From contig NC_086108.1 of the NCBI RefSeq assembly GCF_963921235.1, positions 14,384,001-14,448,000 on the forward strand: a stretch of 64,000 bases of DNA, in the 5' to 3' direction. The notes beneath the pieces are model-generated. The model worked only from the letters and a program-made list of their open reading frames with translations, searched no databases and was not told where the DNA came from. Position 1 is the first letter of the stretch. Every line of letters starts with the position of its first letter. This document shows positions 17,925 to 48,483 of the stretch, in pieces. The stretch is from Mobula hypostoma. Taxonomy: Eukaryota. The position numbers were made by a program, and so were the translations under genes.

Positions 17925-18115
17925 CAGCGGAAGAACTGGACTTTCAATTTCCTTGTGGCACTCAGGAGCCAGCCCGTCTCTGCCCAAATGGCACTTTGTG
18001 TTCATACTGGATCGGACCCAATGATGGCATCACTCAGTTCGATAACATCCTGTTTGCACTACTGACTGTCTTCCAGTGCATTACCATGGAGGGATGGACC
18101 ACCATCCTCTACAAT
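17925..18115 (+). CDS. CACNA1E: Cav2-family alpha-1 subunit, next coding exon (domain I extracellular loop and pore loop with the first Glu of the EEEE filter); equivalent to exon 6
   Basis: Acceptor ...ctgattaacgtttacag|CAG; donor AAT|gtaagt at 18115/18116; 191 nt, phase 1-0, in frame with the upstream exon. Encodes (A)[63 protein letters not shown]. Filter Glu codon GAG at 18089-18091. [11 protein letters not shown] and EGWTT are Cav2.3-type. Not in the ORF track. Confidence 0.93.
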
Positions 18116-18201
18116 GTAAGTGGGATAAAGTGGAAGTGTTTTGTTGGATAAGGGTAATTGGCCGAGCAGGCCCACGTCTGAGCAATGTCAGAAGTTGTTA
18201 T

Positions 18202-18445
18202 CAAACCACAAACAAGAGAAAATCTGCTGATGCTGGAAATCCGATCAACACACACAAAATGCTGGAGGAATTCAGCAGGCCAGGCAGCATCTATGGGGGA
18301 GAAAAAGTACAGTTGATGTTTCAGGCTGAAACCCTTTGGCAGGATTGAAGGGTTGCCAGAGGGTTTCGGCCTGAAACGTCAACTGTACTTTTTTCCATAG
18401 ATGCTGCCTGGCTTGCTGAGTTCCTCCAGCATTTTGTTTGTGTTG
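18202..18445. mobile_element. Penelope-derived fold-back insertion with degenerate hammerhead cores
   Basis: 15-bp TSD gtcagaagttgttat (18187-18201, 18446-18460); arms ~18246-18341 and ~18354-18445 are imperfect reverse complements; contains cggcctGAAACGTCaac. Confidence 0.85.
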
Positions 18446-18679
18446 GTCAGAAGTTGTTATGTTGTTCCATTGTCATCAATCCATTCTCTTTATCTCTGTA
18501 TATTCCTACACTTTACTCTTATTCATCTGCCTCATAACTTCCTTTTGCCACTTGCTTATATCATGTGGTAATTTAGGCCAGTCACATATCCTGATGATGT
18601 CAGAGGAGATGGACCATCTGTGAGAAACCCACATTTTCAGGCATAATGTGTGGTGTTTTTTCAGATGGTCCATTGAGTG

Positions 18680-23395: not shown

Positions 23396-25026
23396 ACTAG
23401 AGTGCAAAGACAGATAGCAGAGCAATTCTGGAGAAAAATGTTGTTAAGCCTATATACAAGGTCAGGAATTAAAAGACTGAACATGTGGGATGAATGTTCT
23501 GAGCTGTGTACATTTGACAGGACTTTAAAAGTGAAAATTTGAGAATTCTGTGTTTGTATGTTTCTGTCAGAATAAAAGGGAGCCTTGGTATTTGAAAGAT
23601 ATTGAGGCCTTGGTTAAGAAAAATGAGGTGCAAAAGCAGGAAAATTGTTTTTCTTCAGGAGTATAAGAAATACAAGAGAGGACTTAAGGAAATCAAGAGG
23701 GCTGAAGGAAGGCATGAGGTTGCTCTAGCAGATAAGCTGAAGGAAATTCTGAGGACTACTACAAATATATTAAGAGCAAAAGGACAGCAAGGGACAAAAT
23801 AGGACATAGAGTCATGGAGTACAGCACACAGACAGGCTCTTCAGTCCATCTCGTCCATGCCAAAACCATTTAATATGCCTACTCCCATAAACCTGCATTG
23901 GGACCTTAGCCCTCCACATCCCTGCCATCCTTGTACCTATCCAAACTTCTCTTAAACATTGAAATCAAGCTCAAATGCACCCCTTGTACTGGCAGCTCAT
24001 TCCACGCTCTCATGACCCTCTGAATGACGAAGTTTCCTCTCATGTTCCCCTTAAACTTCTCATCCAACCTCAGTGGAAAAAAAGCCTGCTTACATTTAGC
24101 CAAAATATACCCCTCATAATTTTACATAGCTCTTTCAAATTTCCTTTTAATCCTCTACATTCTAAGGAAACAGTCCTAACCTATTCAATCTTTCCTTACA
24201 ACTCAGGCCCTCCAGACTCGGCAACATCCTTGTAAATTTTCTCTGCACTCTTTTCAACCTTGTTTGCATCTTTCTTGTAGGTAGGTTACCAAAACTGTAC
24301 ACAATACTCCAAATTAGGCCTCACCAACATCTTATACGATTTCAACATAAGATCCCATCTCCTGTACTCAGTACTTTGACTTACGAAGGCCAATTTGCCA
24401 AAAGCTTTCTATATAACGAAATTTACCTGCGACACCACTTTCGATGAATTATGTACCTGTATTTCCAGGTCCCTTTGTTCTACCAAACTCTTCAGTGCCC
24501 TACTGTTCACAGTGTAAGACCTACCCTGGTTGGTCCCACCAAAGTGCAAAACCTCACACTTGTCTGCATCAAATTCCATTTGCCTCTTTTTTTGCCCAGT
24601 TTCCAGCTGATGCAGATTCCACTGCAAACCATGATAGCCTTCCTCACTGTCCACTACACTGCCAATCTTGGTATATCAGCAAACTTGCTGATCCAGTTGA
24701 CCAGATTATCATCCAGATCAAGAATTATATAGATGACAAACAACAAAGGACCCAGCACTGATCGCTGCGGTACACCACTAGTCACAAGCCTCCAGTTGGA
24801 GAGGCAACTATCTACTACTACTATCTCTGGTTTCTCCCAGAAAACCATTGACTAATACAATTTACTACCTCATTTTGAATGCTGAGTGACTGAACCTTTT
24901 TTACCAATGTCTCACACAGGACTTTGTCAATGCCTCACTAAAATCCACATAGACAATATCCAGTGCCTTGCCTTTAAAGTTGCTGGTGAACGCAGCAGGC
25001 CAAGCAGCATCTCTAGGAAGAGGTGC

Positions 25027-25062
25027 AGTCGACGTTTCAGGTCGAGACCCTTCGTCAGGACT
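25027..25062 (-). ncRNA. Minimal type I hammerhead ribozyme motif (antisense copy)
   Basis: Minus strand: agtc-CTGACGA-agggtctcgacct-GAAA-C-GTC-gact; all core nucleotides present. Confidence 0.8.
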
Positions 25063-25077
25063 AACGAAGTTAACGTT

Positions 25078-25113
25078 AGTCCTGACGAAGGGTCTCGGCC
25101 TGAAACGTCGACT
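25078..25113 (+). ncRNA. Minimal type I hammerhead ribozyme motif
   Basis: agtc (stem I) CTGACGA (25082-25088) agggtctcggcct (stem II) GAAA (25102-25105) C GTC (cleavage triplet 25107-25109) gact (stem I'). Stem III is only the palindrome ACGT. Confidence 0.85.
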
Positions 25114-27926
25114 GCACCTCTTCCTAGAGATGCTGCCTGGCCTGCTGCGTTCATCAGCAACTTTGATGTGTGTTGCTTGAATTTCCAGCATCTGCAGAAT
25201 TCCTGTTGCCTTGCCTTTATCTAGTTTCCTGGTAACTTGCTCGAAAAGCTCTATAAGATTGGTTATACATGACTTAACACTCACAAAGCCATGCCACCTA
25301 TCCTTAATCAGTCCATGTCTATCCAAATACTTGTATATCCTCTTAGAATACCTTCCAATAACTTTCCCACAGCTGCTGTCAGACTCACCACCTAAAATTT
25401 ACTGGTTTCTGTTTAAGCCTTTTTTAAACATCAGAACAACATTGCCAATCCTGCAATCCTCTGGTTCCTCTGTTGTTGCTAAGGATGTTTTAAATGTCTC
25501 TGCTAGGGCCCCTACACTTATCCCATACGGTTCGAGGGAACACCTTGTCAGGCCCTGGGGATTTATCCACCCCAATTTGCCTCATGGGAGCAAACTTCTC
25601 TTCCTCTGCAATCTGTACAGGATCCATGAACTTAATACCACTTTGCCTCACTTCTGCAGACTCTGTCCATCGACTGAGTAAATACAGATGCAAACAATGT
25701 ATTTAAGACCTCTCTCATCTGGTTTGACTCCACACATGGATTACCATTCTGATCTTCCAGAAGACCAGATTTTGTCCCTTGCAATCCTTTTGCTCTTAAC
25801 ATATCTGTAGAATCTCTTAGGATTCACCTTAACCTTGTTTGCTTGAGCAACTTCATGCCGTCTTTTAGCCTTCCTGATTTCTTTCTCAAGTGTTCTTTTG
25901 TATTCCTTGTACTCTATAAACAGCTCAGTTGTTCCTACTTGCCTTTACCTGCTATGCACCTCCTTCTTTTCTCTTAACCAAGGCCTCAATATCTCTAGAA
26001 AACCAAGGTTCCCCATACTTGTTATCTTTACCTTTTATTCTGACAGGCACATTCAAGCTTTTAACTCTCAAAATTTCATTTTTGAAGGCCTCCCACTTTC
26101 TAAGCTCACCTTTGCCAGAAGGCAACCTGTCCCAATCGACAGTTCCCAGATCATTTCTGATACCATCAAAATTGGCCTTTCTCCAACTTAGAATCTCAAA
26201 ATGCAGACCAGACTTACCTTTTTGTATATTTACTTTGAAACTAGTGGCATTGAGGTCACTGGATGCAAAGTGTTGCCCTACACAAATTTCTATCACTTGC
26301 CTTGTCTTATTCCCTAGTAGCAGATCCAGCTTCATATGCTCTGTCATTGGGACTTCTACGTACTGATGGCGGAAACTTTCCTGAACACATTTGTCAAACT
26401 TTATCCAATGTAGTCATTTTACATAATGGGATTCCCAGTGAATATGTGGAAAGTTAAAATCACCTCTTATAACAATCGTATGTTTCTTGCGACAGTCTGC
26501 GATCTCTTTTCAAATTTGTTCTTCTAAATCCCTAGGACTGTTGGGTGGTCTGTAATATAGCACCATTAACGTGGTCATACCTTTCTTATTTCTCAGTTCT
26601 CCCATAATGTCTTATTAGTCAAGTTCTCCAGTTTGTCCTGACTGAGCACTGCCGTGACATTTTCCCTGACTAGTAACGCCACCCCTCCTCCTTTAATCCC
26701 TCCACACTATCACATCTAAATCAACGGAACCCTGGAATATTGAGCTGCCAGTCCTGCCCCCCACCCCCAGCAACCAAGTCTCACTAATGACTACATTATA
26801 ATTCCAGGTGTTGATCCATGCCCTGAGTTCATCTGCCTTTCCTACGAAAAATACACAGCTCAACCTTTTGATTCCTGACATTGTCTGAGATCTTACCAAC
26901 ATCGCCCTCCACAATGTCTCCATGAACTGTTCTGGCATTCTGGTTCCCATCTCCCTGCAACTCTTATTTTAAAATCTACTGTGTAACATTAACAGCCATT
27001 CCCACTAATATCCTCCAGTTCAGGTGCAAACCATCTGTCTGTACGGGTCCCACCTTCCCTGGCAGAGAGCCCAATGATTCAAAAATCTTTTGCCCTCCCT
27101 TGTACACCAACTCCTTAGCCACTTTTTAAACTGTATAATGTACCTCGTTCTGTTATCGTTAGCACATGGCACAGGTGGCAATCTTGAGATGACAACCCTG
27201 GTGGTCCTGCCCTTTAACTTAGCACCTAACTCCCTGATCTCCCTATGCAGAACCTTGTCACTATCACGCCCACGTTATTGGTACCACATGGACCACGTGG
27301 TACCTCTTCTGTCACTAAGAATGATTTAAATATCTCTGCTTGTACCCCGACAATTTCTGCGCTTGCCTCCCACAAGGTCCAAGGGAACAGCTTGTCAAGT
27401 CCTAGGGATTTATCCACCCTGATTTGCCTCAGGAGAGCAAACACCTCCTCCTCTGTTATCTGTACAGGGTCCATGAAATTGATGCCGCTTTGCCTCACTT
27501 CTATAGACTCTGTGTTCGTCTCCTGAGTAAATACAGATGCAAAAAAATTATTGAAGATCTCCCCCTCTGTTTTGGCTTCACACATGAATTACCATCCTGG
27601 TCTTCCAGAGGACCAATTTTGTTCCTTGCAATCCTTTTGGTCTTAACATAAAGGAAGCTTTTCTTTGTAAAGAATGCATTTGGTACATTGGCCTTCATGA
27701 ATCAAAGGATTGAGTACAAGAGTTTGGATGTTATATTGAAATTGGAAAAGATGTTAGTGAAGCCTAATTGTGTCCAGTTTAGATTACCTACATACATGAA
27801 AGATGTAAATGAGATTGAAAGAGTGCAGATAAAAATTACAATGATATTGCTGGGACTTGGGAACCTGATTTGTCAGGACAGTTTGAATAGATTAGGACTT
27901 TATTCCCTAGAATGTAGAAGACTGAG

Positions 27927-34950: not shown

Positions 34951-37900
34951 AAAAGAAAAAAAAATTAACAATAGGCCAGTGAACTGAACACTGGGAAGAT
35001 CAGGAGTCTATTATGAAAGGTATAATAATAGACAGGATTGCAGGGAAAGACTGTCTGTCGTGTGGGAGGCCTTTAAAGGTGTAATATCAAGAGTTGCGGG
35101 CCTGCATGTTCCTGCTAGGCTGAAGGGTAAATTAGTTGGCCCAAAAAAAATATTGAGCACCTGGTTAAGTAAAAGAGAAAGGCATACACTGAATAAGCAA
35201 TTGGGGAACCAATAAATCTTTTGATGACTGCAAGTGTAGGAGAGCACTTAAGAGAGAAGTTAGGAGAGGAAAAGCAGGATATCAGAAGGATCTGGCAGGC
35301 ATGGAAAAGCGAAGTCCTAAGAGGTTTTTTGGGTATATTAAGATTAAAAAAGTAGCAAGGGAGAGAATATGAACATCTATATGGAACCAAAGGAAATAGA
35401 TAAGATTTTTAATGAATATTTCACTTCAGTTTTTACTGTGGAGAAAACAGATGGAATTTAATGCAGACAAGTGTGAGGTGGTGTACTTTGGGAGGACAAT
35501 CCAGGGTAGGTCTTACACAGTGAATGTTAGAGTACTGAGGAATGTGGTAGAACAAAAGGATCTGGGAATACAGGCCCATAGTTCCTTGAAAGTGGCGTCA
35601 TAGGTAGATAGGGTCGCAAAAAGTACTTTTGGCATATTGGCCTTCATAAATCAAAGTATTTAGTACAGGAGTTGGGACGTTATGTTGAAACTGGACAAGA
35701 CAGTGATGAGGCCAAATCTGGAGTAATGTGTGAGTTATGGTGACACAGGGGAAGTATCAATAAGACTGAAAGACTGCAGAGAAAGTTTACAAGGATGTTG
35801 CTAGTTACAGAGAAAGATTGAATAGGTTAGGACTTTTTTTCCCCAGACCATAGGAGAATGAAGGGATAGGCGTATACAAAGTTATGATGGGTGTAGATAA
35901 GGGTTAATACAAGCAGACCCTTTCCACTGAGCTTGGGTGAGACTCAAACTAGTGGTCATAGTTTATGGGTAAAAGGTGAAATATTTAAAGGGAACGTCAC
36001 AGGGAGCCTCTTCACTCAAAGGGTGGTACAAGTGTGGAGTGAGCTGCCAGCGGAAGTGATGGCTGTGGGCTTGATTGTAATATTTTAGAGAGGTTTGGCT
36101 AAGTATATGGACGGGAGAGGAATGAATGTCTGTGGTTCAGGTGGAGGTGGATGGGACAGTAGAATAACAGCTTGGCATGGTCTAAATTGGCTGAAGGGCC
36201 TGTTCTTGGGCTGTCATGCTCTGTGACTTGAGAATCTAAATTGAAGGAAGTTAAGGAAATGGGGAAATTGGAGTATCGTATTCAATTCCGGTTGTCTCAG
36301 TATCGGAAGCATTACAGAGGATGCAGATATTTACCAGGATGCTGCCTGGATTAAAGAGCACGTCTTAAGAGGTTGAGTGAACTAGAGCTTTTCTCTCTGG
36401 AGCGAAGGATGATGAGAGGTAGCTTGACAGAGTTTTACAAGATGATAAGGGGTATAGATAAAGTGGACAGCCAAAGACAGTTTTCCAGGGGTGAAAATGG
36501 CTAATATGAAGTGACCTAATTTTAAGGTAAGTATAGAATGGATGTCAGAGGTAAGTTTTTTAAATAGAGAGTGGTAGGTGCAATGAATATGGTGCCAAGG
36601 GTGGTAGTGGAGGCAGATACATTAGCAACATTTAAGAGACTCTTAGATAGGAACATGGATGAAAGAGAAAATAGAGGGCTGTGTGAGAGGGAAGTGTAAG
36701 ATTTATTTTAGAGTTGGTTAAAAGGTCAGCATAACATCATGGGCTAAAGAGCCTGTACTGTGCTGTACTGATCTGTGTTCTATATTCTATGAGCACTGGT
36801 AGCGCCAGAGATTTTTTTCTTGCTGGTGCTACAGTGGGGCTGAATTATTCAGTGATGGTGCTGAGGGATGTACTGTATGGTAATATGTATTCGCAAGGCT
36901 AGACGCGTGGCATTCAAAAGTCAGTTTCAAGCATTATGTGCCTACTATAAATGCCTCTGTTTATTCACAAGCAACAGCAATTGATAGATCTAATATAGAA
37001 GTGAACTGTGACAGTGTCAACAGCATCGGAGACAACCCGGGCTACACAGAGCATAAACAAACAAACCAACAGAGCATCCGACCCACAGCGCACAACATGA
37101 ATCACACACCAACCCCGCAATCGGCGTCAAATGTGTGCTTTTCAACTGAAAAACACAACACTAATCCAAAATGTCCACTGCTATTCACATTACATAGACA
37201 GACAATGCCAAAAGACACACCATTATTAAAGTCAAATAAGGCAAACAACAGATGCAAGGCTTTACCAGGAGTTGGACAAACCATACTCTGACCATGCAAT
37301 ACCTCATTTTTTTCGGTTACTGAATTTAAAACAAAAATCAACAGAATCGCCGCTTGGAAGTCTAAGCAAAACCAGTAGGCTTAATAGCAGTAAATGTAAT
37401 ATTTTAGGATTTGCAGGAAACATAAGAACTGTGGGGTATCCACCACAAGATAATATTTATAATCAGCATTAGTCTAGGCCCAAATTTTTAAAAAATCGAC
37501 TGCATTCACCATTGATGTTTTCAGAGAAGCACAATCTGTCTGTTGTTGTGATTGGTGGCGAAAGCATCAATGATTTTCTGGATGTCAAGTGCCTTGGTCC
37601 TCTGGCTGTTTATGACCAACAGGGCCAAGTTGCTGTTCCGAGCATCGCCGCTGTTATTCCTTAGGTAGTTTTTGAGGCGTCTGAGGCAAGAGAAACTCCG
37701 TTTGCATGAGGCAGATGTCACAAGCAGAGTCAGTGATATGCAGATTAGTTTTTATAAATCTATAAATGCATCACAGTAGGGTCTCATTACAGCTAGAAAT
37801 TCCACTGTGTCATTCACTGTCTGTCCTTGCTTTTGTTTTGTTTCCAGCAGACGCTGAACCTGATGTAGCTCTGCAGTCAGGTTCACTTCAGTCACTCCAT

Positions 37901-38995
37901 AGTATTGGGCCATTGGCCAAAGACAATTCTTGTCTAGGAAGAACTTGTGTTTGGGACTCAATGCTGAGACTCCAGTCAGAACACCCCCAGTCTCAACTGA
38001 GAACCGTCTTTTCATTTCAGTCAGAAGTCTGTCTATAACCGGATAGAAACAGTGCTTGCGAAGGTCATCAGAGGATGTGACAGGTGTGCGTTCAGTTTGG
38101 GCCTCAACAACAAAATCATTTAGGCGGCGGGGTGGCTGGGCCTGTCTCCTTTCATGTGGTCTGCTCTGTATACCGGCCTTGACGCACAGGTCCCAAGCTC
38201 TTGCCTGAATTTCACTCCATGATTCCTCTCCCCGTTTTGCTGAGAGTGCATCAATAACAGACTGAGCCAAGTCCACAGCGGATGAAAGCTCCAAACTGGG
38301 AGATCGTAGCTGGGCTGACATGAACTTGGTGACTCAGAATAAATCCTCAAACAGAGTGAGAAGTAAAGCAAACTGCTCGTCAATCAGTCCATTTACAGCT
38401 CTGGCCTCCGTTTTCCTCCGTGCATTTGGTTGTCACATAATATCCTGTAGTGTAGCTAGAATGGCAGGGAGTGATTTCCTTATAGCTCACAAAGCTGTAT
38501 ACTGCCATGCCCAGCATGTATCTGACAATTTCTTCAACTCTGCGGGCTGTGCAGTTGATTCCAGTTCTCTCTGTTTCTTCATGACAAGATCATGGGCAAC
38601 AGAGTTTGAAAAGAAGTTGTAAAACAGCTATAAGTGTCCCTATCCCAGACCCTTCCACACCTTCGGGACACTTTCTTCGCCGTCTGTAATGGTCCTACCC
38701 GTTATTTCATCCTCCGTCGGATTCACGCCTGCAATCGCCGTTTTTTTGACTTTGTCATGTTAGGCAAAGATCGCAAGATCCTACATCTCCGGATCCAGAG
38801 CCTGCCGGCCCCGACGTTAGCAGGCATGAACTTCAGATTGCGGCCTCTGCCATTGATCTCGGCGGCTCCAACACCTCAGGGCATATTCAAAACCCGGACT
38901 CCAGCAACGACCACGGACACCTTCACAGCGATCGCGCAATCACCAACTGCGACTCCAGCCTTGAACTCCAGGCCGGGTCTTTATGTGCTGCTGTT

Positions 38996-41363
38996 GTGAC
39001 TCCCGTCTCCCCTTCCCCCACCACCACTCCGCAGCCCCGTCTTCCTCAGATCCCACCATCAACTCCTGGGCCCTCAGAAGCTCCACCTTCCTCTCACCCC
39101 AACCCTCCCCTCTCCATTGACACCCCCAGCCTCCCCCCTCCCCCGTCTGATCCCAGCTCTCATCCGTGCCGGGTCTTTACCATCCCCTCCGACCTTCAAC
39201 TGTCGGAGGCAGAACGCTCTGTTCTCAGTAAGGGCCTCACCTTTGTCCCCCTTCGCCCACACCTCAGCGAGTTCCGTGTTCGCCATGATGCGGAACTTTT
39301 CTTCCGCCGTCTCCGTCTCTGAGCTTACTTCTTCGGCAAGGACTCTTCCACCCCCACTGATGACCCCTTCTCCCGTCTTCAACCCTCCTCTTCTTCATGG
39401 ACACCCCGCTCTGGACTTCTGCCTGCTCTGGATCTCTTTATCGCTAACTGCCGACGGGACATCAACCGTCTCGACTTCACCGCACCTTGTCCCCATTCCA
39501 ACCTCACTCCTTCGGAACGCTCTGCACTCCACTCCCTCCGCACTAATCCTAACCTTATTATTAAACCCGCCGATAAGGGGGGGTGCTGTTGTAGTCTGGC
39601 GTACTGACCTCTACTTTGCCGAGGCACAGCGACAACTCGCGGATACCTCCTCTTATTTACCACTCGATCGTGACCCCACTAAGGAGCACCAGGCCATGGT
39701 CTCCCACATCATCACCGACTTTATCCGCTCAGGGGATCTCCCATCCACTGCTACCAACCTTATAGTTCCCACACCTCGCACTTCCCGTTTCTACCTCCTA
39801 CCCAAGATCCACAAACCTGCCTGTCCTGGCAGACCTATTGTCTCAGCTTGCTCCTGCCCCACCGAACTCATTTCTGCATACCTCGACACTGTTTTATCAC
39901 CCCTTGTTCAATCCCTTCCGACCTATGTTCGTGACACTTCTCACACTCTTAAACTTTTCAATGCTTTTAAGTTCCCTGGCCCCCACCGCTTTATTTTCAC
40001 CGTGGATGTCCAGTCCTTATATACTTCCATCCCCCATCAGGAAGGTCTCAAAGCTCTCCGCTTCTTTTTGGATTCCAGACCTAATCAGTTCCCCTCTACC
40101 ACCACTCTGCTCCGTCTAGCGGAATTAGTCCTTACTCTTAATAATTTCTCCTTTGGCTCCTCTCACTTCCTCCAAACTAAAGGTGTAGCTATGGGCACCC
40201 GTATGGGTCCTAGCTATGCCTGCCTTCTTGTTGGGTTTGTGGAACAGTCTATGTTCCGTGCCTATTCTGGTATCTGTCCCCAACTTTTCCTTCACTACAT
40301 CGACGACTGCATTGGCGCTGCTTCCTGCACGCATGCAGAACTCGTTGACTTTATTAACTTTGCCTCCAACTTTCACCCTGCCCTCAAGTTTACCTGGTCC
40401 ATTTCCGACACCTCCCTCCCCTTTCTAGATCTTTCTGTCTCTGTCTCTGGAGACAGCTTATCCACTGATGTCTACTATAAACCTACTGACTCTCACAGCT
40501 ATCTGGACTATTCCTCTTCTCACTCTGTCTCTTGCAAAAACGCCATCCCCTTCTCGCAATTCCTCCGTCTCCACCGCATCTGCTCTCAGGATGAGGCTTT
40601 TCATTCTAGGACGAGGGAGATGTCTTCCTTTTTTAAAGAAAGGGGCTTCCCTTCCTCCACTATCAACTCCACTCTTAAACGCATCTCCCCCATTTCACGT
40701 ACATCTGCTCTCACTCCATCCTCCCGCCACCCCACTAGGAATAAGGTTCCCCTGGTCCTCACCTACCACCCCACAAGCCTCCGGGTCCAACATATTATTC
40801 TCCGTAACTTCCGCCACCTCCAACGGGATCCCACCACTAAGCACATCTTTCCCTCCCCCCCTCTCTCTGCATTCCGCAGGGATCGCTCCCTACGCGACTC
40901 CCTTGTCCATTCGTCCCCCCCATCCCTCCCCACTGATCTCCCTCCTGGCACTTATCCGTGTAAGCGGAACAAGTGCTACACATGCCCTTACACTTCCTCC
41001 CTTACCACCATTCAGGGTCCAAAACAGTCCTTCCAGGTGAGGCATCACTTCACCTGTGAGTCGACTGGGGTGATATACTGCGTCCGGTGCTCCCGATGTG
41101 GCCTTTTATATATTGGCGAGACCCGACGCAGACTGGGAGACCGCTTTGCTGGACATCTACGCTCTGTCCGCCAGAGAAAGCAGGATTTCCCAGTGGCCAC
41201 ACATTTTAATTTCACATCCCATTCCCATTCTGACATGTCTATCCACGGCCTCCTCTACTGTAAAGATGAAGCCACACTCAGGTTGGAGGAACAACACCTT
41301 ATATTCCGTCTGGGTAGCCTCCAACCTGATGGCATGAACATTGACTTCTCTAACTTCCGCTAA
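38996..41363 (+). pseudogene. Penelope RT-GIY-YIG polyprotein, lightly disrupted
   Basis: LSKGLTFVP, KPADKG(G)AVVV, FYLLPKIHK..PGRPIVS, DVQSLYTSIPH, QTKGVAMGTRMGPSYA, YIDD, LPFLDL, VIYCVRCSRCGLLYIGET, EQHLI...GMN. In-frame TGA at 39320-39322 (likely CGA>TGA); extra G in a G7 run at 39577-39583; open from there to the stop at 41363. Confidence 0.92.
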
Positions 41364-41658
41364 GGCCCCACCTCCCCCTCGTACCCCATCTGTTACTCAT
41401 TTTTATGCACACATTCTTTCTCTCACTCTCCTTTTTCTCCCTCTGTCCCTCTGAATATACCTCTTGCCCATCCTCTGGGTCACCCCCCCCCTTGTCTTTC
41501 TTCCCGGACCTCCTGTCCCATGATCCTCTCGTATCCCCTTTTGCCAATCACCTGTCCAGCTCTCGGCTCTATCCCTCCCCCTCCTGTCTTCTCCTATCAT
41601 TTTGCATCTCCCCCTCCCCCTCCAGCTTTCAAATCCCTTATTCACTCTTCCTTCAGTT

Positions 41659-41694
41659 AGTCCTGACGAAGGGTCTCGGCCTGAAACGTCGACT
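41659..41694 (+). ncRNA. Minimal type I hammerhead ribozyme motif in the Penelope 3' UTR/pLTR
   Basis: agtc CTGACGA (41663-41669) agggtctcggcct GAAA (41683-41686) C GTC (41688-41690) gact; identical to 25078-25113. Confidence 0.88.
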
Positions 41695-43402
41695 GCGCCT
41701 CTTCCTATAGATGCTGCTTGGCCTGCTGCGTTCACCAGCAACTTTGATGTGTGTTGCTTGAATTTCCAGCATCTGCAGAATTCCTGTTGTTCTTGTAAAG
41801 CAGCTGCACAGTTTCAAAAAACTCACCTGCTTGCTGTACATTGCTCACAACATCCACTAAAACAAGATTAAGTCTGTGAGAATGGCAGTGTATATATAAT
41901 GCCTGTGGGACCTCTTTCCTAAACCTCTCTTGTACCCCGTCATTGTACCCGGACATCACTGCCACCCCATCATAACACTGACCTATACACGTGTACTTAT
42001 CAATAATACACTGGGCGAGTGTTTGTTCAATGCTTTTATAAAGCGACTCTGCGTCCAACCCTTCTGCTGGAGTGAAGTGCAAGAATTCTTCAAGCACTGT
42101 TTCATTATTCAAGTACCGCACCACCACTGATATTTGTTCCTTTTTACTCAAGTCTTTACTTTCATCCACCATGATGACAAAATGTCCAGCTTCCTTGATT
42201 TCTGCACTTATTTGACCATATCTGCCATATTACCCATAATTTCATTCTGGATATCATGATGGGTATTTTTTGCATTTCCAGGATTGTCCTCTATTTTTTT
42301 TAGCTACAGTCTTATCAAACTGCCCAATTACACTGAGCAACTCAACAAAGTTTCCCCTGTTGACAGATCCATCATCCTCCCGGTGTCCTCGCTGGGCAAT
42401 GCCTTGGCACGCAGTATAGCGTAGAGACACAACCACTGCTCTCATATACTCACTTTTTTCTTGGACAGTCCTTGCATGTCCTTTATCAAGCAATCTTGAA
42501 CCATCTTGTTTTCTCAGTCTGAGTTCAGCCCATGCCTCCATAGCAAACTTATAAGCTGCACTTACATGGTGGGTTTTGAAAGCTGTTGTAGCTTTCCACC
42601 AGTTGCGGTAACTGGTGACAGTGAAGGTAGACTCAGAATGGAACCCATGTCCTCCATAAAGGAAGTGCCTGCATGCGAAGCAGAACATAGTATCTTTCGT
42701 GATCGAATATTCCAGCCAGGAGTACAGGGCAAACGAGCCACGAATAAAACTCCTTTGCTGATTGCCAAACTGTTGCAGCAGCGAAGGGTACATTTTCAAT
42801 GCTGGCCGACGGGGTCCTTCCTCAGGCTGCTGGCTAACATCACTAACAGTATTCCCACTAGCACTATGAGCAGCTTCATTCACGTTCTCTTCTGAATCCT
42901 GCTCCATTTTTTGCTCCTCTACTTCGCCCTCACACTCCTTCGATGAACTGCTGTCGTCCCCACTTACTTCTTCCTGCATGTCACTTTCAATTAAGACAGG
43001 CTCAGGCACCACTGATTCCTCTGGGTGAAGTCGTTTTCTCACTAAAAATTGATCCATTTTTCACGCCAGCCAAAATAAAGCACGTGCCAGGCCCATGCTA
43101 GCTTGTAAAAGCACAATGCGTGTGTGGAACTGCGCCTGGATCCTGCACAATGTATGTATACAATCAATCTCTCGCGTGAGTGAGAGTGAGTGACATCACC
43201 ACCTTAAGTGATCTTAAATCAACTTAACTGATCTGAGTGAGGACAGCAACGGCAAGACATTGACAACGAACGAATAAGCGGAAGTGTAGAGTGGACCTGA
43301 CCTTAGACCAGCACAGAGCTTATAACTTTATTGCTGCGTGGGTGCTATGGTAATTGGGGGCAATGTTTCACTAGATCAACTGGAGAAACAAGCTGTATGT
43401 CT

Positions 43403-47469: not shown

Positions 47470-47735
47470 GATTTTCTTTTCCATAGATGCTGTCTTACCT
47501 TCTGAGTTCCTCCAATATTTCGTGTTTGTTGGAGAAAAGATTTACTAGGATGCTTTAAATACTGGAGATTCTGCAGATGCTGGGTACACCCACAAAATGC
47601 TGGAGGAGTTCAGTAGGTCGGGCAGCATCTACTCCTGATGTGTCCTGATGAAAGGTCTTGGTCTGAACCACTGGCTGTTTAGTTTCTTCCATAGATGATG
47701 CCTGACTGCGCTGAGTTCTTTAACAGGATTACCAG
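47470..47735. mobile_element. Older Penelope-derived inverted fragments with a degenerate hammerhead
   Basis: Antisense end (ttctgcagatgctgg...aaatgctggaggagttcag...gcagcatct) joined to sense CTGATGA (47645-47651) aaggtcttggtct GAAC...ccatagatg; imperfect flanking repeat gatttactaggatgct / gattaccaggatgct. Confidence 0.65.
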
Positions 47736-48483
47736 GATGCTGTGTGTGTTTGGGGGCCTAAGTTACAAGGAGAGATCATGTAAACTTTATTCCCTGGAAC
47801 ATAGAAGATTGAGACAGAGGAACATAAGATCATGACAGGCATAGATAGGGTGAAAGTATATAGATTCTACCTCTCTGCCCCCACCAGGGATGGGGTGCAA
47901 AAGACAAGTGGCCATAGGTTTGAGATAAAGGTGTGAAAGGGATATCAGGACAGGGTCTTCATGTAAAGGCAGATGCATATTTGAAATCAGCTGCCAGAAG
48001 TAGTGGTTGAGGCAGGCTCATTATCAACATTTAAAATCCGGCTAGATAGGTGCAGGCATAGGAGAGGTTTAGAGGGCTATGGGCCAAACGTGGGCAGATG
48101 GCAATAGCTCGCTGCGCAACACAGTTGGCTTGGACAAGTTCGGTCGAAGGACTCATTTCTACACTGTATGGCTTTGGATATAATAGCAGATTACTTGAAA
48201 AACAGTGACAACTGACAGAGTCGACATAACTTATAAGAAAAGAGGTCATGCTTGACAGATATTGAATACTTTGAGGATGTAATCTGCAGAATCGATGAGG
48301 GAGAACTAATGGATGTGATGTATAAAGATTATTATGCAAGGTAAAAGTACAGAGGATTGGGAGTGAGAAACTGACAGGAGTAGAGAGCAGGAAATGTAAT
48401 TGGAATTAGCATGTCTTTTTTCAAGTGACATGCAGTGACTGGTGAGACACCACAGAAGTCAGTTCCCAGGATCCCAACTATTC

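Follow-up and report, generated by a model that had tools for sequence, protein, structure and literature searches.

A 230-bp hairpin with two opposed hammerhead motifs in Mobula hypostoma: probably a very short head-to-head insertion of a Penelope-like element 3′ end

How does a genome come to carry two hammerhead ribozyme motifs that face each other on a hairpin of only 230 bp, and is such a hairpin a mobile unit of its own or a by-product of a larger element? The question is raised by positions 24964-25219 of a 64,000-nucleotide stretch of the Mobula hypostoma genome (contig NC_086108.1, forward strand, 14,384,001 to 14,448,000; hereafter the window), lying inside a calcium-channel gene and most likely in an intron, where the original prediction had placed a compact, Penelope-mobilised ribozyme hairpin. 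We conclude, with a probability of roughly 85%, that the hairpin arose in one insertion event in which very short pieces from the 3′ end of a Neptune-type Penelope-like element (PLE) came to lie head to head, probably because two cDNAs were primed from both target ends on uncut RNA and joined at their 3′ ends, and that its hammerheads are passengers predicted to be inactive.

The insertion is bounded by a 13-bp direct repeat, TGCCTTGCCTTTA, whose two copies (24964-24976 and 25207-25219, plus strand) agree at 13 of 13 positions and which has no third occurrence in the window. The 230 bp between them (24977-25206) contain two arms of 91 nucleotides (nt) each (24976-25066 and 25074-25164; the last A of the left repeat doubles as the first paired base of the left arm) with three mismatches (24986/25154, 25003/25137 and 25042/25098) and a 7-nt loop, AAGTTAA (25067-25073). 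The host sequence is a decayed remnant of a long interspersed nuclear element (LINE) reverse transcriptase (RT), recognised on the minus strand from its translated frame (24700-25500, approximate limits examined). This frame runs ...QVTRKLD-KGKA up to the insert and resumes behind it as KGKA-LDIVYVDFSEAL. Because RT codons are duplicated and the reading frame is interrupted exactly there, the repeat is a true target-site duplication (TSD). The 42 nt at 25165-25206 continue the right arm only (44 nt with the TG common to the TSD); this one-sided tail, not singled out in the original prediction, is the diagnostic feature of the insert. The predicted TSD, insert length, arms, mismatches and loop were all confirmed, and folding of both strands, which had been proposed as a check, gave -199.9 kcal/mol for the plus strand (z -25.7, with none of 200 shuffles as good) and -193.1 kcal/mol for the minus strand.

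The arms derive from a PLE. The right arm and the 44 bases following it are identical at 130 of 134 positions (97%) to 41656-41789, 16.6 kb downstream, near the 3′ end of a long copy (38630-41792, plus strand) in which profile matches and motifs identify an RT, a CX4CxxC linker, a GIY-YIG domain and one 3′ pseudo-long terminal repeat (pLTR) with a hammerhead. The RT match is weak (RVT_1, E 2e-5, below the cut-off) and the GIY-YIG domain scores 23.4 bits, above the Pfam cut-off of 22.6; the linker reads CKRNKCYTC, and the cysteines between GIY and YIG are those of GVIYCVRCSRCGLLYIG. A CX2-5CxxC linker upstream of GIY-YIG marks Neptune and Nematis and is missing in Penelope and Poseidon (PMC8557442), and by this motif the parent family is classed as an endonuclease-bearing (EN+) PLE of Neptune type. 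The long copy has its own TSD (38617-38629 and 41793-41805; 13 bp with one mismatch), is cut at its 5′ end and carries stops and frame changes within its first 700 bases. The left arm matches its positions 41651-41745 at 95.8% over 95 columns, with three substitutions and one base missing at the 5′ end, and two differences from the long copy are common to both hairpin arms. Because of these shared differences and of its truncated, broken state, we regard the long copy as a relative and not as the direct source. The arms had been described as nearly identical to the 3′ end of a downstream Penelope, and so they are, with the amendment that this Penelope is itself 5′-cut and broken; their match to its pLTR supports the proposed Penelope-like origin of a protein-free insert made by that element's machinery. 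The parent element is very abundant; summed contig depth reaches millions over the arms against hundreds just beyond the loop, a sum that is not a copy number.

Each arm holds one minimal type I hammerhead core, found by pattern match on the minus strand in the left arm (25058-25031) and, with the descriptor of PMC4209133, on the plus strand in the right arm (25082-25109), where it is sense in the channel pre-mRNA. A third core lies in the pLTR of the long copy (41663-41690, plus strand), and the pattern CTGANGA-N-GAAACGTC has three matches in the window and none in 100 shuffles. Each core consists of stem I (UAGUC/GACUG, 5 bp including one G.U), CUGACGA, a stem II of 3-4 bp, GAAA, and C-G-U-C without a loop III, in agreement with CUGANGA, GAAA and NUH. 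In the right arm, stem I pairs 25077-25081 with 25110-25114 and the predicted cut falls after 25109. The segment GAAAC|GUC contains an ACGU palindrome and a palindromic 15.2-16.2, an arrangement of dimer type, and G.U or A-U takes the place of the G10.1-C11.1 pair, a usual though not obligatory feature. Judged from sequence, the two motifs are the parent element's ordinary minimal type I hammerheads, with a presumed dependence on dimerisation. The cores had been called intact, which is true of the core letters and not of the stem III loop and the G10.1-C11.1 pair, both absent. The pattern scan does bear out one core per arm, each strand's transcript thus holding one ribozyme and its antisense, and the third core supports the derivation from a pLTR. 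Rfam, recommended for hammerhead models, gave 0 matches in the window at the gathering threshold, and at E<=10 no hammerhead family, so none matched at any threshold tried. The E<=10 matches were to generic hairpin microRNA (miRNA) models and PrrB, and a reading as miRNA was rejected since they reflect the perfect stem or chance.

Can these ribozymes act in place? The hairpin is predicted to hold both cores inactive, and the computation supports this well. In pairing probabilities computed on an 856-nt transcript around the insert, all 28 core positions of the plus transcript are unpaired with probability <=0.003, and those of the minus transcript with <=0.004 except for one mismatched base. 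The cores are therefore more than 99% paired in the model, in line with the earlier proposal that the hairpin locks the ribozyme off. Since head-to-head copies put the antisense arm first in either direction of transcription, each core would be paired as it emerges, and since the two cores lie on opposite strands they are unable to dimerise with each other. The locked state follows from the geometry of any head-to-head insertion of this type. For a dimer, the active fold has a nearest-neighbour energy of -12.3 to -12.9 kcal/mol against -32.9 and -34.1 kcal/mol for the best co-folds, although the model ignores tertiary contacts and protein help, and these energies are no proof that the parent ribozyme is inactive. 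In PMC4209133 a single minimal motif showed no cleavage and dimers little, and the G10.1-C11.1 pair is described as highly conserved.

How two copies of one pLTR came to face each other is suggested by the asymmetry of the insert. By alignment, the left arm (24976-25069, minus strand) is an inverted, 5′-truncated pLTR copy without a tail. The right arm (25075-25164, plus strand) is a 5′-truncated copy that starts with the 5′ strand of hammerhead stem I, and its extension (25165-25206, plus strand) aligns as a one-sided PLE tail (PMC8557442, PMC11167929). They meet at a head-to-head junction (25066-25074) made of template-like GAAG and a TTAAC filler, itself a repeat of the arm end. A cDNA primed from the top target end would give the left arm's plus strand, and one primed from the bottom end would give the minus strand of right arm and tail. 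In each case 1-2 bases are common to the target end and the site at which its copy starts, and at the centre the top copy extends four template-like bases (GAAG, one base missing) past the bottom copy.

A staggered cut produced the 13-bp TSD. We propose that the bottom-strand end then primed copying at the far end of the tail and that copying from the top-strand end began 42-44 nt further in; two priming sites at this distance would account for a tail on one side. Two-site, two-strand priming at this locus is suggested by in vitro work on an anole Poseidon element, whose protein cuts both strands and extends them on uncut RNA from two start sites, one on each side of the tail (PMC11167929). 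Loose contig ends at 25173-25178 and 25208 mark two 3′ ends of the family, about 30-35 nt apart. Both copies span the ribozyme completely and end at stem I or immediately in front of it, so the template had not cleaved itself. That uncut RNA served as template across the ribozyme for both copies agrees with the in vitro result that insertion does not require cleavage. The ends carry a few filler bases repeating the arm end, and an end-joining route presumably united them. The copy has no open reading frame (ORF), is missing the upstream portion of the pLTR and is probably a dead end.

Whether the hairpin also spreads can be read from its junction. In run X1, a 54-nt contig of depth 10.8 spans the loop and is identical to 25045-25098, and contigs that match the left flank without any difference reach depths of 11.2 and 12.4 in that run, so that the junction stands at about single-copy level. 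The exact junction is not among the eight pieces listed for each of runs X6, X9 and X15, and in none of the four runs does a contig cover 25219-25260 (beyond 25218) at 98% likeness. Nine of ten tabulated joints are fold-backs from an antisense arm to a sense arm (six in X1, three in X6), the tenth being an internal skip. The nine are represented by one contig each, at depths of 7-48, and have nine different second-arm starts between 25107 and 25179. At least eight further distinct joints, either fold-backs or direct back-jumps, occur among the 12 rows listed from each of two tables, once one skip and the rows that fall on the tail end or the LINE flank are set aside. None of the 17 other junctions tabulated equals that of this hairpin. 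The window itself holds an older fold-back of the same family group (18202-18445, with a perfect 15-bp TSD at 18187-18201 and 18446-18460) and a third, decayed one (47555-47728, with a 13-bp TSD with one mismatch at 47542-47554 and 47729-47741). Both have a one-sided tail and a different junction, making three TSD-flanked fold-backs in 64 kb with three distinct junctions. Metagenome contig scans gave no matches for the fold-back and none for a single core. The original prediction had envisaged a propagating family of ribozyme hairpins and had named heterogeneous junctions in advance as the mark of one-off products; single-copy depth and junctions that all differ are what we found, and the hairpin is likely not a spreading family of its own. 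Of the compact, Penelope-mobilised unit, the Penelope machinery stands and the unit of its own kind does not.

The joints also indicate where copying stops. In seven of the eight joints not end-limited by the query, the start of one copy falls within 25075-25079, on the 5′ strand of stem I; the other nine could fall near these positions only by query design and are excluded from this count. Among 11 aligned pLTR pieces in the window, read by eye, six start within about -6 to +8 of the stem I front, two start some 50 nt further in and three extend further upstream. In this insert the only reason that both cores are whole is that both arms reached the stem I front. Since both arms include the whole core, the ribozyme cut site was rejected as the starting point for this insert. 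Elsewhere, the second arm starts 4-8 nt behind the predicted cut in five of the 17 junctions and within 3 nt before it in two (25107-25118); the joint 25114/25078, which occurs in two organisms, coincides with the stem I match AGTC/GACT. Such joints near the cut site, some of which may be direct back-jumps and not fold-backs, could point to joining guided by the stem, or to cut RNA that left a trace.

Copying would have ended either at the 5′ terminus of the RNA or where stem I and the pyrimidine tract stalled it. TCAGTT at 41653-41658 resembles the initiator (Inr) consensus, if weakly, the motif occurring three times in the 427-nt pLTR region, where 0.54 occurrences are expected. In D. virilis Penelope, the promoter and transcription start lie in the pLTR (PMC2377424). 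A more specific account, to which we would give somewhat less than even odds, is that both nicked strands prime on uncut RNA at sites flanking the tail, that the cDNAs run off the RNA 5′ end at TCAGTT, before the hammerhead, and that their 3′ ends are joined with templated filler, a two-ended mechanism not yet demonstrated for PLEs in genomes. If so, a short transcript driven by the pLTR promoter would open with the hammerhead, and this start, perhaps together with another stop close to the cut site, could be mapped from catalogues of junctions with no need of RNA data.

Several observations weigh against the reading of a single insertion built from two cDNAs. The left arm falls about 10 nt short of the short end that is usual for the family (25173-25178), and it extends 4-5 nt past the Inr-like A, which lends no support to a sharp transcript start. 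The family question was judged from the 64-kb window and read-derived contigs of four public runs, which is indirect and not an assembly-wide count. On its two sides of the loop the junction contig offers 22 and 25 letters, fewer than the 31 of the bridging rule; it demonstrates the junction without tying it to this locus, and X1 may be the assembly's own source sample. Some other joints reach depths of 47-66, or three to five times the single-copy value, which means that one and the same junction can arise again or be duplicated. Finally, Arkhipova et al. read the junction palindromes of such insertions as self-priming (PMC3846280). On that route the origin would be the same, with one cDNA folding back on a short palindrome and copying itself, and the three arm differences arising later. 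The palindromic filler at the loop (TAAC GTTA, GTTAAC), the two differences common to both arms and the proposal of PMC3846280 for head-to-head PLE junctions speak for it. Yet the top cDNA has no tail and the bottom cDNA no GAAG, so that neither alone would template the whole insert and a single self-primed cDNA would need an extra step for both; in vitro, moreover, both target strands are extended (PMC11167929). From this one junction we infer that two joined cDNAs are the better explanation, and we consider self-priming unlikely, though worth keeping in view.

The remaining alternatives fare worse. The hairpin could be a non-autonomous element, transcribed and re-mobilised whole by the Penelope protein in the manner of a retrozyme or of a retrotransposed miniature inverted-repeat transposable element (retro-MITE): it retains the tail region where RT starts, pLTRs acting in cis suffice to mobilise cargo (PMC3846280), and the junction contigs at depth 47-66 just mentioned would suit it. 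Its own junction has single-copy depth in X1, however, all 17 other tabulated junctions differ, as do those of both older fold-backs in the window, and its motifs are inverted and not in tandem as in retrozymes, which makes this highly improbable. We judge a host role in the channel gene, as a splicing-tuning editing substrate or as a source of small RNAs directed against the element, to be very unlikely: the sense pre-mRNA would contain a 91-bp near-perfect duplex, and across animals editing follows the abundance of double-stranded RNA (PMC5625713), but the insert is young, sits about 6.85 kb from the nearest exon found, within a decayed LINE, and shares the region downstream of that exon with two other such fold-backs, and editing alone would not show function. 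Inverted PLE structures do trouble short-read assemblies (PMC8557442), and an assembly fold-back artefact had been considered and argued against from the start. The TSD within an interrupted LINE frame, the three arm mismatches, the one-sided tail and the exact loop junction in an X1 read-derived contig at depth 10.8 leave it a nearly negligible chance.

The insert is not a new kind of structure. An inverted 5′-truncated copy beside a pLTR, with a 30-40-bp tail on one end, is typical for PLEs (PMC8557442), and inverted pLTRs with TSDs, a tail and junction palindromes are described for Adineta Pen2/Pen2a (PMC3846280). With such EN+ PLE insertions (PMC8557442 Fig. 2; PMC3846280; D. virilis Penelope, PMC2377424) the hairpin shares head-to-head 5′-truncated copies, the tail on one end, the TSD and the junction palindrome. 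It differs from the published examples in having no ORF, a length of only 230 bp and nearly equal arms; its tail is 42-44 nt against the quoted 30-40, and its TSD 13 bp against 8-10 bp in rotifer examples. It is the published inverted-pLTR insertion type at its shortest, a known kind of by-product.

The same holds for its ribozymes. Dual minimal hammerheads on opposite strands, 100-700 bp apart and mostly in truncated copies, are reported in PMC4209133, and the conserved core, short stem I, absent stem III loop and palindromic C15.2-G16.2 recur here. Unlike those motifs, the hairpin cores start only 24 nt apart, and stem II appears as 3-4 bp closed by G.U or A-U. The Anolis Poseidon element PAc, studied in vitro (Frangieh et al. 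2024, PMC11167929), offers the closest mechanistic parallel in its extension of both strands, its two RT starts flanking the tail and its uncleaved RNA as the dominant template; it belongs to another clade, whereas the parent element here has a Neptune/Nematis-type linker, and the available text on PAc gives no description of inverted products or of where they stop on the 5′ side. Non-LTR retrozymes (bioRxiv 10.64898/2026.07.22.740005) are likewise protein-free and pLTR-derived with type I hammerheads, but are direct tandem repeats with two same-strand ribozymes, in contrast to one core plus its antisense per strand. We rejected a retrozyme identity for this reason, since it needs at least two same-strand tandem hammerheads. 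We found no literature on the parent family or on minimal two-core hairpins in cartilaginous fish, and subscription papers and supplements may hold examples. Dimeric PLE hammerheads have reportedly been described by Lunse et al. in 2017. How PLEs make inverted structures, and what their hammerheads do, is named in the literature as an open question. As a locus the insert matters little; as an insertion of this type it bears on that question, and the modest lead is mechanistic, in that two cDNAs seem to stop at the front edge of the ribozyme.

The insert most likely lies in an intron of a Cav2-type calcium-channel alpha-1 gene. Part of the nearest upstream exon, which covers the domain I pore loop, is present (17960-18115, plus strand; best match human Cav2.1, E 8e-29, then Cav2.3 and Cav2.2), and sequence matching places another exon near 2564-2719 on the same strand; these matches support the predicted location inside a calcium-channel gene, on its sense strand. 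A GT donor at 18116 lies about 6.85 kb upstream of the insert. Because the exon matches residues about 270-370 of proteins more than 2,300 residues long, the gene continues downstream, although a scan of the window with short motifs found no further channel exon. Use by ADAR or Dicer is plausible for any long intronic duplex, and so is ADAR editing of one of 91 bp; editing by itself would not show function. A search of public runs listed no RNA run with the hairpin, which is not evidence on expression or editing, and the presence of family arms in X15, presumed to be an RNA run, has no bearing on either. The insertion is likely neutral.

The older fold-back (18187-18460 with its TSDs) begins 87 nt behind the donor at 18116; its cores are decayed, and it is the likeliest of the hairpins here to affect splicing or editing near the exon, if any does. 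The long PLE copy is itself hosted by a decayed minus-strand reading frame (37752-38629 and 41793-43060), which we take to resemble a hAT-type transposase. All three fold-backs and the long copy have TSDs of 13-15 bp, compared with the 8-10 bp of the rotifer examples. A short pLTR piece (47476-47529) adjoins the third fold-back tail-to-tail, which suggests repeated insertion at one spot at a LINE end.

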